Positions 11,299 to 39,711 of a DNA stretch of 39,711 bases are shown one piece after another (the stretch's first letter is position 1; each line of letters opens with the position of its first letter). The notes below the pieces were generated by a model. That model did no database searches, was not told the origin of the DNA, and saw only the letters and a list, made by a program, of their open reading frames with translations. The stretch lies in the sequence record PZ379184.1; one strand, given 5' to 3'. This stretch comes from a phage. A program made the translations under genes and the position numbers.

Positions 11299-13002
<1,704 letters not shown>

Positions 13003-13053
13003 ATGTCAATGCCCTGAGTGCGACTGGAAGTCACCATACGGAGGACACCATTA

Positions 13054-13218
13054 GTGTTTAAGAAACTTAAAGCTCGCTACCATCGGTTCATGTACAAATG
13101 GTGGAGTGATGAAGCAGCCTGCCTGTCCAACATTCTGGGAGACCAAAGGTTCGACTCTAAGGCATGGAAGAGAGCTAACCGGAAGTTTATGTATCACTTC
13201 TTGCGTACAGACTTCTAG
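13054..13218 (+). CDS. Hypothetical small basic protein (about 55 aa; 66 aa if started at GTG 13018)
   Basis: SD GGAGGA 8 nt before GTG 13054; start uncertain. Confidence 0.35.
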   Translation: MFKKLKARYHRFMYKWWSDEAACLSNILGDQRFDSKAWKRANRKFMYHFLRTDF

Positions 13219-13281: not shown

Positions 13282-15297
13282 ATGTTTGACCTTAAGAGTA
13301 TCTGGGGTTCTGACATAGAGACCAACGGTCTCCTTGATACAGTATCCCAGTTTCACTGTGGGGTCCTGATTAACGCCGAGTCGAATGAGACCCTTAAGTA
13401 TGGGGTAGCTCCGATGGTCGGTATCGTCGGTGGCTTCAAAGAGTATGTACAGAAGGTGGAAGAGATTGCCGCATCACCTGATGGTATGCTGGTATTCCAC
13501 AACGGTATCAACTATGACGTCCCGGCTATTGACAAGCTGAAGCGTCTGTACTTTGGGAAACGCTTTAACTTCCCGAAACACAAGATGATTGATACCTTGG
13601 TGCTGGGACGCTTGATGTATCCAAACATTAAGTTCTCAGACATGGGCGCAGTGAAAGCTGGTCGTCTGCCACCTAAGATGATGGGACGCCAGTCTCTTGA
13701 GGCTTGGGGCTATCGTCTCGGTGAGATGAAAGGTGAGTACAAACACGATTACGTTGCCAAGTGCAAGGCTGAAGGTATCGAATATAAGGCTGGGGACGAA
13801 TGGTTGTTCCCATCTCAGGAGATGCTAGACTATAACGTTCAAGACGTTGTGGTCACACTGGCGTTGTTCAAGAAGTTCCTGACTGACAAGTATTACTTCC
13901 AGTCTGAACAGTTCGCTTTCGACCAGATTTATGCGTTGCGTCTGGAACATGATGCTGCGTGGACCTGTGCGAAGATGGAACGTAACGGCTATCCGATGAA
14001 CACCGAGATGGTCGAAGGCTTATATCGTGAACTCACCGTCAAACGTGCAGAGTTGTTGGACAAGCTGCGTTCGACTTTCGGTAGCTGGTATGCACCAAAG
14101 GGAGGCAAGGAGTTCTTCAAGCACCCACAGACAGGCAAGGACCTTCCGAAGTATCCGCAAGTCGTGTATCCTAAGGTCGGGTCAGTATTCAAGAAGCCGA
14201 AGAACAAAGCTCAACGATTAGGTCTGGAGCCTTGCGAGTTCGACTCACGAGACACGATGGAAGGAGCACCGTTCACACCTATCACTTACGTTGAGTTTAA
14301 TCCGGGAAGCGGAGACCACTTAGCGAAAGTCCTGATGGAGCGTGGCTGGGAGCCTGTGGACTTCACTGACACCGGGAAACCTGTAGTCGATGACGAGACG
14401 TTAGAACACGTTAAGTTACCAGACGAAGAGGCTCAGGCTTGCGTAGAGCTGGTCCGTGAGTATCTGGTAGTCCAGAAGCGCATCGGTCAGGCTGCTGAAG
14501 GTAAGAACGCATGGTTGAAACTTGTAGGTCCAGACGGACGTATGCACGGTTCAATCAACCCATGCGGGGCAGTAACCGGACGTGCGACTCATAGTTCACC
14601 AAACATGGCTCAGGTCCCTGCTAACGGTGCTCCGTATGGTGAGATTTGCCGTGGTGCTTTCGGTGCAGCTTGGAACAAGACGGATGGTAAGCCAGACCCT
14701 TGGATTCAAGTGGGCGTGGATGCCTCAGGTCTTGAGCTTCGTTGTCTGGGGAACCGAGCGGCCCCGTTTGATGGTGGAGCCTATGCGAAGACTGTGGTAG
14801 AAGGGGACATCCACTGGGCCAACGCAGTAAACGCTGGGTTAGCACCTAACGTCCCACGCGATAAGTCGAACCACGACCATGAGGCTTTCCGTAACAACGC
14901 TAAGACGTTCATCTATGCGTTCCTGTATGGTGCAGGGGCCGCTAAGATTGGACTGATAGTAGGTGGCGGTAAGAAGGAAGGTTCAGCTCTCATGAAGAAA
15001 TTCATTGAGGGTACACCAGCTATCAAGGATCTGCGAGAGGCTGTGAGTAATACGTTAATCTCAGACTCTAAGTGGGTGGATGGAGAGAACATCGTCAAGT
15101 GGAAACGCCGTTGGTTGCGTGGACTTGATGGTCGCCGTATCCACATCCGGTCGCCACACTCAGCACTGAACGCCTTACTTCAAGGCGATGGTGCGGTAGT
15201 CTGTAAGCACTGGATTGTCGAGACTGAACGTATGCTCGAAGAGGCAGGGTATGTTCACGGCTGGGAAGGTGACTTTGCGTACATGGCATGGGTGCAT
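13282..15297 (+). CDS. 5: DNA polymerase (T7 gp5 homolog), exon 1 (672 codons)
   Basis: Starts MFDLKSIWGSDIETNGLLD (T7 MIVSDIEANALLE) after SD GGAGGA; collinear with recalled T7 gp5 through FAYMAWVH, then an in-frame TAA at 15298. Confidence 0.9.
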
Positions 15298-15895
15298 TAA
15301 CATCATGGTGCACATTAAATCTGGTGAACTCGGTGAACTCCTAATGGGACAATACCGAGCCAAGCCATAGGGAGGATGTATGAGAGGCAAGAAGTTAATT
15401 CTTGAGGCCACTGAGACTGGCTGCATAATCCCTACGTCACATAAATTGAATCAGGATGGATACTTCCGAAAGAGGACTAACGGTGTCCTTGAGATGTATC
15501 ATAGAACTGTATGGATTAAAGCTAATGGTCCAATACCTGACGGTTTCGAAGTAGACCACAAGTGTCGTAATAGAGCTTGTTGCAACGTCGAACATCTACA
15601 AGTATTAGACCGGGACTCACACTTAGTCAAGACCAACAAAGAGCGATACGCTGCTAGGAAGCTAGAAGCACGAGACTACTGGGTAGAGACTGGGTGTACT
15701 GGAACGAAGTTAGCCGAAATATTCAATGTGTCGTTCTCAGCCGCCTGTGGGTGGATTAGAGAGTGGAAGGCGTAGAGACTATCCGAAAGGAGTAGGGCCG
15801 TGGGTGAGATTCCCACGTAACCCGAAGCGCCAGACAGTCACCTCAAAGACTGATGATATAGTCCGACACTTCCAGTAATGGGAGAATACAGAAAG
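15298..15895 (+). mobile_element. Group I self-splicing intron (598 bp) in the DNA polymerase gene, carrying an HNH homing endonuclease ORF
   Basis: Exon ends in T; intron ends in G; intron 5' GTGCA can pair with exon TGCAT (P1 with U-G wobble); R-like AGAGACTA (15775-15790) and S-like GATATAGTCC (15855-15864) elements; downstream exon restores the conserved DNAP C-terminus. Confidence 0.8.
15380..15775 (+). CDS. HNH homing endonuclease (131 aa), intron-encoded
   Basis: HNH motif HRTVWIKANGPIPDGFEVDHKCRNRACCNVEHL; SD GGGAGG before ATG; lies wholly inside the intron. Confidence 0.85.
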   Translation: MRGKKLILEATETGCIIPTSHKLNQDGYFRKRTNGVLEMYHRTVWIKANGPIPDGFEVDHKCRNRACCNVEHLQVLDRDSHLVKTNKERYAARKLEARDYWVETGCTGTKLAEIFNVSFSAACGWIREWKA

Positions 15896-33702: not shown

Positions 33703-35976
33703 ATGTCCACGATTACACAATTCCCTTCAGGAAACACTCAGTACAGGATTGAGTTCGACTACCTAGCCAGAACGTTTGTTGTTGTTACTCTGGTGAATAG
33801 CTCTAACCCTACCCTGAACCGTGTACTGGAAGTTGGTAGAGATTACCGATTCATTAATCCAACGGTGATTGAGATGTTGATTGACCAATCGGGTTTCGAC
33901 ATCGTTCGTATTCACCGTCAGACTGGAACTGACTTAGTGGTAGACTTCAGGAATGGCTCAGTATTGACAGCTAGTGACCTGACCAATGCAGAGCTTCAGG
34001 CTATCCATATTGCAGAAGAAGGTCGAGACCAAACTGTTGACTTAGCGAAGGAATATGCCGATGCTGCTGGTAGCTCTGCTGACAACGCTAAGGATAGCGA
34101 GGACGAAGCACGACGAATCGCTGATAGTATCAAGGCATCTGGTCTAATTGGCTATATTACCCGTCGCTCCTTCGAGAAAGGCTTCAACGTTACAACATGG
34201 AACGAGGTCCTGCTATGGGAAGAGGATGGTGGGTATTACCGCTGGGATGGTGCTCTTCCAAAGAACGTTCCTGTCGGTTCGACCCCTGAAGCTACTGGAG
34301 GTGTTGGTCTGGGTGCATGGGTTAGCGTTGGTGATGCGTCATTACTAGCAAGGCTAAAAAGCAATAGCGCTGGTGAGGGCGCCTCCCTTATTACATTTGA
34401 AAATGGCAATTCTGTTGAGAGTCTTTCCGACAGTGATGGTGCTAAAAACATAGGTAGTGGTGGGAGAAGTTTGCATGAACGTAATAATGATATTAAGCAT
34501 TCTGGGGATTTCCCTACCTTACAAGCTGCGATAGATTCATCGTTACCAAAAAATGACTTACTTATTTCCCCTGGTGAATATACTGAAAAAGTTACTATTG
34601 GTAACGCACAGTTAAAAGGCGTTGGTGGGGCTGCAGTACTAAAAACACCAGCAGACTTTACAAACACTGTTCAGGTTAATTCATCTACACCCCATTGGCA
34701 ATTCCGCCATAGTGGTGGTTTTGCTATAGATGGCTCTGGAACAATCGGGAGCGCAGGCATTAGTTTTGACCCGTCAGACCAATATTCTGGGCGCCATAAT
34801 TTTAGTGATGTATACATCCACAACATCAATAAGGCCCTTCAGAAGCCTTCCGGGAACATCGGTAATACATGGAGAAATATTGGGATATCTACGTGTGATT
34901 GGGGTTACTGGGCGCAGTCTGCTTCTGAGATGCACTTAGGCACCGATACCCTTCAGAACATGCACTTTGATGGCATTAGTACTTACTGCGTTTATATGAA
35001 TGCTACAGTAGGTGCAGTGCCGGGTACATTCGGAGGTGGGGTAGGCGGTTGGTGGATTAAGGATAGTATCATGGAATCCTCTGGCGGCGGTGGCATCTAT
35101 CTCAAGAACAAGGCCGGAGACTGTCCTTCTGCTCCGTGCGGTGTATCCAATGTATGGGTGGAAGCTATCGCTACTACCCCAGCTGTTAATGTAGATGGCG
35201 TAGCTCAGAAGCCTCGTGTGCTTAAGCTCATTGACACCAGTATCTTCTTTGCAGAGTACACGTATCTGAACAACGTAGAGCTTCAGAACTCCAACCTTGT
35301 TGCTTATGGATGTCGTGTAGATAACTCAGATGGACACATGGATATCTCTGTAGATGCCAGCAGCAGCTTTGTGGCTGAGCAATTGTACCTGAACGGTAGT
35401 TCTGGCAAGGATGTAATGGTGCGCTCTGTAGCGGCCCAGACGGGTATGATTGGGCAGAGCTGGACACCTAATATGAGTATGCGTGGTTACCTGCCGGAAG
35501 GATACATCTATCGAGTATCTGGTAATAAGCTAGTAGCTAAACCATTCGATAGCGGTACTGCTGTGTTCGGCGGTACGGCAAGCAGTTCTGGCAGCTTGCA
35601 CCCACAAGGACAGTTATCCCAGAACTGCATGTATTTTGAATTCCAAGGTGCTGCTGAGTTTGAACTTACTGATGCAGCATGGCAGGTAACCTCAGGTAAT
35701 TGGTACGTATGGGGCATTAGCACTGAGCTGCTTCAGGGAACTCCTGCGAGCTTCCGTATTGGTGGGGATATCGGCGTAGGTGAAGTCTTTACTAAGCAGG
35801 GTCAGTGGGTGAGTACCTTCGGCGTAGCTCAAGCAAGTGCTTCAGGTGCAGTGAACCTCAGACTAAGTACTGCTGCAGGTGGCGTAGTAATGCGCTTAGC
35901 TGACTACTTTGTTGCTGAGTTCGCTACTCAGGCAGAGGCTATGCGCTTCGTGAACAGTAGGCGTGCTCTGCGTTAA
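33703..35976 (+). CDS. 17: Tail fibre / tailspike protein (gp17 homolog); N-terminal adaptor plus divergent C-terminal receptor-binding domain
   Basis: N-terminal 150 aa share FDYLARTFVVVTL, DYRF, LVDF.NGS.L.A.DL, IHIAEE with recalled T7 gp17. The C-terminal 600 aa are Gly/Ser/Asn-rich with no T7 counterpart. Confidence 0.88.
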   Translation: MSTITQFPSGNTQYRIEFDYLARTFVVVTLVNSSNPTLNRVLEVGRDYRFINPTVIEMLIDQSGFDIVRIHRQTGTDLVVDFRNGSVLTASDLTNAELQAIHIAEEGRDQTVDLAKEYADAAGSSADNAKDSEDEARRIADSIKASGLIGYITRRSFEKGFNVTTWNEVLLWEEDGGYYRWDGALPKNVPVGSTPEATGGVGLGAWVSVGDASLLARLKSNSAGEGASLITFENGNSVESLSDSDGAKNIGSGGRSLHERNNDIKHSGDFPTLQAAIDSSLPKNDLLISPGEYTEKVTIGNAQLKGVGGAAVLKTPADFTNTVQVNSSTPHWQFRHSGGFAIDGSGTIGSAGISFDPSDQYSGRHNFSDVYIHNINKALQKPSGNIGNTWRNIGISTCDWGYWAQSASEMHLGTDTLQNMHFDGISTYCVYMNATVGAVPGTFGGGVGGWWIKDSIMESSGGGGIYLKNKAGDCPSAPCGVSNVWVEAIATTPAVNVDGVAQKPRVLKLIDTSIFFAEYTYLNNVELQNSNLVAYGCRVDNSDGHMDISVDASSSFVAEQLYLNGSSGKDVMVRSVAAQTGMIGQSWTPNMSMRGYLPEGYIYRVSGNKLVAKPFDSGTAVFGGTASSSGSLHPQGQLSQNCMYFEFQGAAEFELTDAAWQVTSGNWYVWGISTELLQGTPASFRIGGDIGVGEVFTKQGQWVSTFGVAQASASGAVNLRLSTAAGGVVMRLADYFVAEFATQAEAMRFVNSRRALR

Positions 35977-38970: not shown

Positions 38971-39149
38971 ACCCCCGGTTACTTATAGTATTACTATAGT
39001 GAATATACATATGCAGACTTTATGCAAGACCTTAGGAGGCAGACTCCGAGTTCTTACCTAAGGCTTGCACCGATGGGAGGAGGTGATATTAATCATAATA
39101 CCTCCAATACAGATAGTCACAGACCATAGATACAGGAGGTATGTAGCAT

Positions 39150-39308
39150 ATGGCAAAGACCAAAGCTGTACTTAAAGCTCTGGCGACCAATCGAGCTACA
39201 TACAGGTTTCTTGCTGCTGTTCTACTTGCTGCTGGCGTTACTGCTGGAAGTCAGTGGGTCGGGTGGGTCGAGACTCTCGTATGTTCTCTGGTGTCTGAGT
39301 GTCGTTAA
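39150..39308 (+). CDS. Hypothetical small membrane protein (52 aa), gene 19.5 position
   Basis: SD AGGAGG before ATG; hydrophobic stretch FLAAVLLAAGVTAG. Confidence 0.5.
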   Translation: MAKTKAVLKALATNRATYRFLAAVLLAAGVTAGSQWVGWVETLVCSLVSECR

Positions 39309-39468
39309 CGCCGTAATGGTAACAATCAACGAAAGCAAGACCTAAGGTCAGTTCATAGCTGACGCTACTCTACTGACCTTAGCTACTGTAGTCAAGGACT
39401 TTAGGTAACACCTTAATAGAAGCTCACTTAGGGTCATCCTACTTATTGGTCTATCCTAGTGTCGCCTG

Positions 39469-39507
39469 ACCTACGGTCCTTGACCTACAGTGGCTGTGGC
39501 CTACAGT
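39469..39507. repeat. Right-end short repeats (CCTACGGTC / CCTACAGTG / CCTACAGTA), counterpart of the 175-297 array
   Basis: Same motif family as the left end, read directly. Confidence 0.6.
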
Positions 39508-39545
39508 AGTGACGATGAGTTTTGGACCAAAAGTTTGAGACCACA

Positions 39546-39608
39546 TCTCACAGTTCAAGAACCTCAAGTCTCCCCATAGGCCCTCTTTCAGTCCAGACAA
39601 AGGCCCTA
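39546..39608. repeat. Right copy of the terminal repeat, starting TCTCACAGT as in T7; only 63 bp of it present here
   Basis: 39558-39608 equals 1-51; TCTCACAGTTCA matches the recalled first bases of the T7 genome (TCTCACAGTGTA). Confidence 0.7.
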
Positions 39609-39711
39609 TGAAGCGGCGCACGAAAAACGCGAAAGCGTTTCACGATAAATGCGAAAACTTCATGCCACCTGTTGAGTAGTGAGGTTAAACACCCAACATG
39701 CAACTGAAATC
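39609..39711. other. 103 bp of unassigned sequence after the truncated terminal repeat, not found elsewhere in the window
   Basis: Identity to the left end stops at 39608; contains palindrome AAACGCGAAAGCGTTT. Confidence 0.5.

Follow-up and report, generated by a model that had tools for sequence, protein, structure and literature searches.

A foreign tail, very probably an untrimmed nanopore rapid-barcoding adapter, in place of most of the right terminal repeat in the record of a K1F-like phage

The DNA under analysis, referred to below as the window, is a phage record of 39,711 nucleotides (PZ379184.1) that belongs to a Kayfunavirus, a K1F-like podophage of the T7 type. The phage collection contains no identical record, and the best ones, K1F, HC12, LM33_P1, PSK1 and others, are about 93-98% identical. 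At the right end, the unique sequence closes with the 20-mer ACCAAAAGTTTGAGACCACA (39526-39545, plus strand), which in identical form stands directly before the right-hand terminal repeat in K1F and EcoDS1. Next come, at 39546-39608 (plus strand), the opening 63 bp of the right repeat, composed of TCTCACAGTTCA (39546-39557), a sequence present as a single copy in the window, and, immediately 3′ of it, an exact 51-bp copy of bases 1-51 (39558-39608). There the repeat is cut off, and a tail of 103 bases (39609-39711) runs to the end of the record. The left copy of the direct repeat, at 1-165 on the plus strand, lacks its first 12 bp.

The equality of 39558-39608 with bases 1-51 and the divergence from 39609 onwards had already been pointed out in an earlier note on this DNA, and a direct end-to-end comparison bears both out: the two segments are identical at 51 of 51 positions, identity stops there, and the ungapped identity over the next 103 bases falls to the random level (28/103). 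A 51-bp exact repeat cannot arise by chance. The tail was also said to occur nowhere else in the window, and indeed none of its words of 11 or more bases recurs elsewhere in the window, whichever strand is read. It is entered by open frames of 31-62 codons.

What the ends of such a genome should look like can be read from its relatives. K1F (DQ111067) and EcoDS1 (EU734172) carry direct terminal repeats of 178 bp with 0 mismatches between the two copies, annotated in EcoDS1 at 1-178 and 39075-39252. These repeats begin with TCTCACAGTTCA and open as TCTCACAGTTCAAGAACCTCAAG, so that the sequence before the right copy, regarded in the earlier note as the start of a T7-type repeat, is just that. 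The window resembles both relatives in this repeat start, in the 20-mer before the right copy, that is, in the junction of the conserved terminal sequence with unique DNA, and in the boundary ...GAGTCTC(T). Base 1 of the window aligns to base 13 of K1F, HC12, HC13, EcoDS1, phiYIO1-1 and Kaz2018, and window bases 1-164 align to K1F 39539-39704, the final 166 bases of the K1F record. By homology, the left copy would thus run to 164 (a K1F-like boundary) or 165 (an EcoDS1-like one), in keeping with the earlier estimate of a T7-like left copy of roughly 170 bp, and the repeat would measure 176-177 bp.

The alignments to K1F and EcoDS1 therefore place the start of the right repeat at 39546 and leave the left copy 12 bases short. 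These are the same 12 bases (TCTCACAGTTCA) that the right copy has, a point that the earlier note did not reach. Of the ~177 bp expected on the right, 63 bp are present and ~113-114 bp are missing, whereas both copies are complete in K1F and EcoDS1. The window ends thus share 51 bp and not a full-length repeat, and because the relatives do have identical full-length copies, this failure is a defect of the record. The true genome would be about 39,733-39,734 bp long. The earlier doubts about the right end as a true terminal repeat, and about the record as a correct end-to-end genome, were justified. On both sides of the terminal repeat, at 170-300 and 39460-39510, there are also short degenerate repeat arrays with CCATAAGTCA / CCTACAGT motifs. 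Repeat arrays of similar appearance lie alongside the concatemer junctions of the T7 group.

The phage collection gives the same picture of the joint. None of 457 related phage records matches the window past 39608, and in every one of the best related records the match ends at precisely this base (query from 38000; query_to 1609). The exact junction between phage and tail has no match in viral contigs either.

The tail itself is modular. In the phage-collection search, its first 52 bases matched the outermost right end of phage Mu (NC_000929 36666-36717), and likewise that of SfMu, at 100% identity. The Mu end proper spans 50 bp (39609-39658, minus strand; NC_000929 36668-36717) and comprises R1-R2, the MuA-binding sites of the Mu attR end, while bases 51-52 are the first two of the 24-nt block that follows and match by chance. 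In D108, two sites of transposase binding are annotated in the homologous 50 bp, one spanning bases 11-27 counted from the end and the other bases 32-48. Read on the minus strand, the segment is 5′-GTTTTCGC...GCCGCTTCA-3′, a complete 50-nt right end with ...TTCA-3′ at the insert, whose terminal CA adjoins the phage DNA exactly where the repeat identity stops, as expected of a MuA strand-transfer joint. The target-site preference of MuA at the joint (pentamer CCCTA) was also weighed and dropped as uninformative. The likeness to Mu takes in the inverted repeat AAACGCGAAAGCGTTT at 39625-39640, which extends over the inner portion of R1 and the spacer between R1 and R2. It corresponds to the palindrome that had been noticed in the tail, and the inverted repeat does exist there, but as an imperfect palindrome with a 6-bp stem and a GAAA loop; it is not an element of the phage described here. 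Past the 50-bp end, native Mu continues as TTTAGCTTTCGC... and runs on towards gene mom (TTTAGCTTTCGCGCTTCAAATG... / TTTAGCTTTCGCGC...), whereas the window does not. As the window sequence leaves Mu past base 50, only the 50-bp Mu end is present, and the copy in the window is a synthetic Mu end.

Beyond the Mu end, a 24-nt slot (TCACTACTCAACAGGTGGCATGAA on the minus strand, 39659-39682) is followed by the 14 bases GGTTAAACACCCAA (39683-39696, minus strand) and by a final noisy stretch of 15 bases, CATGCAACTGAAATC (39697-39711, minus strand). Nanopore rapid barcoding uses the MuA transposase, and in the MuA cargo of the SQK-RBK114 kit the barcode is flanked by 5′-GCTTGGGTGTTTAACC-3′ (preprint 10.64898/2026.04.18.719403). 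Reverse-complemented, the segment GGTTAAACACCCAA equals the final 14 bases of the 16-nt GCTTGGGTGTTTAACC; it lies on the far side of the 24-nt slot, exactly 24 nt from the Mu end, and is then interrupted by a 1-base deletion with respect to the published 16-mer. This is the one match to the flank in the window (2 mismatches over 16), and both adapter pieces, Mu end and flank, are found at this end of the window only. On the minus strand, the last 103 bases thus read flank, barcode slot, Mu end (...CTTCA) and phage, the order expected where a read has its 5′ start and proceeds leftwards into the genome. The cargo oligonucleotide of Oxford Nanopore Technologies (ONT) has the order 5′-GCTTGGGTGTTTAACC, 24-nt barcode, 50-nt Mu end ...CTTCA-3′, of which the literature gives only the 16-nt flank and the fact that MuA is employed.

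The 24-mer in the slot, TCACTACTCAACAGGTGGCATGAA, is presumably ONT barcode 56 (BC56). The 24-mer, its reverse complement and its sub-strings gave no match in literature full text, from which the sequences that we take to be BC53, BC54, BC55 and BC57 are likewise absent, and the 24-mer gave none in genome contigs, viral contigs, metagenome contigs and complete E. coli genomes. As for the last 15 bases, they share TGCAACTGAA with the end of the plasmid of Streptomyces NBC_01766, which goes on as ...CGAAGTAC and can be compared with the bottom strand of the nanopore Y-adapter, GCAATACGTAACTGAACGAAGT (PMC9965538). The score of the 15 bases against the canonical Y-adapter is not significant, being reached by 751 of 2000 shuffles. 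Most likely, 39697-39711 is a badly base-called remnant of a sequencing adapter.

The same arrangement is present in other deposited sequences. A search of the tail against vector, host and phage databases had been proposed in the earlier note; in the phage and plasmid collections the tail matched the Mu end and the ends of adapter-bearing records, and its distal 67 bases gave nothing in complete E. coli genomes. In the plasmid collection, the 50 bp of Mu appear in records of linear Streptomyces plasmids, right at their termini, with three of these records matching 82-97% of the 103-base tail, and in the phage collection the adapter appears near the end of Proteus phage vB_PmiA_PM1. When the ends of six records unrelated to the window (the Proteus phage PM1 and five Streptomyces plasmids) are aligned, one layout emerges: the invariant 50 bp of Mu, 24 record-specific bases, the constant GGTTAAACACCC(AA) and a noisy ...AACTGAACGAAGTAC. 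The spacing of 24 nt between Mu end and flank is shared by the window and these records, with 23 nt in a single noisy one. Their 24-mers, which differ in most records, are in the expected orientation the ONT barcodes BC10 (two records), BC11 and BC36, whose sequences are listed in PMC10170163 and PMC12717432. PM1 and the plasmids of the Streptomyces NBC strains and of S. laculatispora resemble the window in carrying a modular adapter at or near their termini, and differ from it in their barcodes and, for PM1, in the internal position of the adapter, 129 bp from the end. Residual nanopore adapters at the termini of a phage assembly have been trimmed before, in a work that gives the Y-adapter sequences (PMC9965538). 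A generic search with the layout (Mu end, N24, flank) gave no match in viral and metagenome contigs, we assume since these are mostly short-read assemblies.

Some of these records deserve a mention of their own. The PM1 sequence, deposited as a 'complete genome' (PQ065999.1), contains within 41610-42188 the 50 bp of Mu, 24 nt and GGTTAAACACCCAA..., and a 'hypothetical protein' CDS (XES61207.1, 41832-42065) is annotated over the adapter. Among 'complete' linear plasmids, the adapter sits at the termini of those of Streptomyces NBC_01766, NBC_01463 and NBC_01178, S. anulatus, S. althioticus and S. laculatispora, with the barcodes BC10, BC11 and BC36 and, in one record, an inverted adapter-adapter duplication; telomere analyses of such records would suffer. 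Partial matches to the Mu end were also found at or near base 1 of PQ621707 (1-29), OP611406 (85-105) and PV591327 (1-19), records of Streptococcus phage 36L, Klebsiella phage mfs and Escherichia phage EcK-vB, which are likely to be partly trimmed copies of the same adapter.

Altogether, we are highly confident that the tail at 39609-39711 is an untrimmed adapter of the ONT rapid-barcoding kits, joined by MuA and left on a long-read assembly of a K1F-like phage, that is, an ordinary assembly artefact and no biological feature. With the SQK-RBK cargo it has in common the 50-nt Mu end with CA at the joint, the 24-nt slot, the GCTTGGGTGTTTAACC flank, the outward position at the terminus and a far end where base-calling becomes noisy, and it differs in a flank one base short of 16 and in having only ~15 noisy bases where the sequencing adapter would lie upstream. 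Among the origins considered in the earlier note were an assembly chimera and vector or host DNA fused to the end. The part that stands is that of an artefact in which non-phage DNA was joined to the end; this DNA is an adapter, and not vector, host or the product of a two-genome chimera.

The way in which the record acquired this end may be pictured as follows. In the rapid-barcoding kit, MuA cuts the DNA and attaches the cargo oligonucleotide to the new 5′ ends, and one read would have started at such a cut, between bases 63 and 64 of the right repeat, and run leftwards. We infer that this read was taken as the terminal backbone of the contig with its adapter untrimmed, and that polishing would have been powerless there, because other reads would not align to the tail; the ~113-114 bp that the right repeat still lacks would then never have been appended. 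The left end, which begins at repeat base 13, plausibly results from the loss of 10-20 bp at molecule ends described for nanopore reads (10.64898/2026.04.18.719403), and since the 12-bp deficit fits that range, the left contig end suggests the physical terminus of the genome. Random tagmentation by itself yields a single joint of this kind. That the joint at repeat base 63 marks a structural feature, such as a nick, a site of pausing or a target that MuA prefers, or the true end of a sub-population of molecules is a reading which nothing favours, and we consider it extremely improbable.

Other explanations of the tail were weighed against that of the rapid-barcoding adapter. The one that survives best, though still very unlikely, invokes another MuA-based method, such as a mini-Mu for Sanger transposon-primed sequencing, in-vitro insertion mutagenesis or a short-read fragmentation kit. 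The 50-bp R1-R2 end is common to all MuA methods, and the 24-mer of the window has no match in literature full text, both of which would suit such an origin. However, at a distance of exactly 24 nt from the Mu end there are 14 bases that agree with the published flank of the ONT rapid-barcoding kit, the full layout equals that of record ends with verified ONT barcodes, and the distal part decays into noise as at the start of a nanopore read. Under this alternative, too, the end would be artefactual or an insertion made by engineering, though not an ONT adapter.

We give almost no credence to a genuine insertion of Mu, or of a Mu-like element, in the right repeat, for instance acquired while the phage was grown on a Mu lysogen, the contig then breaking off inside Mu. 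Such an event would account for 52 bases equal to a native Mu terminus and for the CA at the joint, but the inward continuation of Mu fails, as the window diverges from Mu, SfMu and D108 alike after base 50-52, and the sequence beyond matches the ONT flank instead. A Mu insertion of 37 kb would, moreover, be too large for a T7-type head. Finally, the presence of the 103 bp in the contig is all that speaks for authentic phage, host or cloning-vector DNA, either a novel right-end module (the genome segment otherwise missing here that the earlier note had left as an option) or a chimera that includes E. coli or plasmid DNA, an idea that can practically be discarded, as the tail is absent from all 457 related phage records, a search of its distal 67 bases (39645-39711) in 5,426 complete E. 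coli genomes came back empty, its plasmid matches are solely adapter-contaminated record ends or Mu ends, and the relatives carry exact full-length repeats.

The coding body of the record is sound. When the K1F proteins were compared with the window by tblastn, all core genes were collinear and in a single frame, with the exception of the 3′ end of gene 4 (12990-13060). The possibility of an indel-ridden draft assembly was rejected on these grounds, with no frame breaks attributable to the window. In gene 4, the window encodes a product of 566 aa that ends in ...NNDF*, whereas K1F (NC_007456) has one extra G at ~12631 and a primase/helicase of 586 aa. The last 21 aa of this longer product match the window in another frame. 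The gp4 of T7 is also 566 aa long, with an acidic tail and a terminal Phe. The difference is probably an error or a variant on the K1F side and not in the window, and because the rest of the coding body is collinear, the defect is limited to the termini.

The tail fibre or spike gp17 (33703-35976, 757 aa), with a Phage_T7_tail N-terminal domain and a Tail_spike_N domain in Pfam, matches the endosialidase gp17 of K1F only at residues 1-226 (87.8%). Since its receptor-binding part is a different module from that of K1F, the phage is probably not specific for the K1 capsule. The DNA polymerase region (~13282-15700) is collinear with that of K1F, and its longest polymerase open reading frame ends at 15300. 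Gene 5 of K1F is annotated as a two-piece join split by an HNH endonuclease frame, and the end at 15300 is consistent with the same HNH interruption.

The significance of the finding is one of data hygiene only. The record is due a correction in which 39609-39711 is removed, the left end is supplied with its missing TCTCACAGTTCA and the right repeat is completed, giving a repeat of 176-177 bp. If the adapter were left in, similarity searches would report a false Mu-like transposon end, gene callers may open frames over it, as has already occurred in the annotation of PM1, and inferences about the termini and the packaging type would go astray. Other phage and linear-plasmid records deposited as 'complete' are contaminated in the same way.
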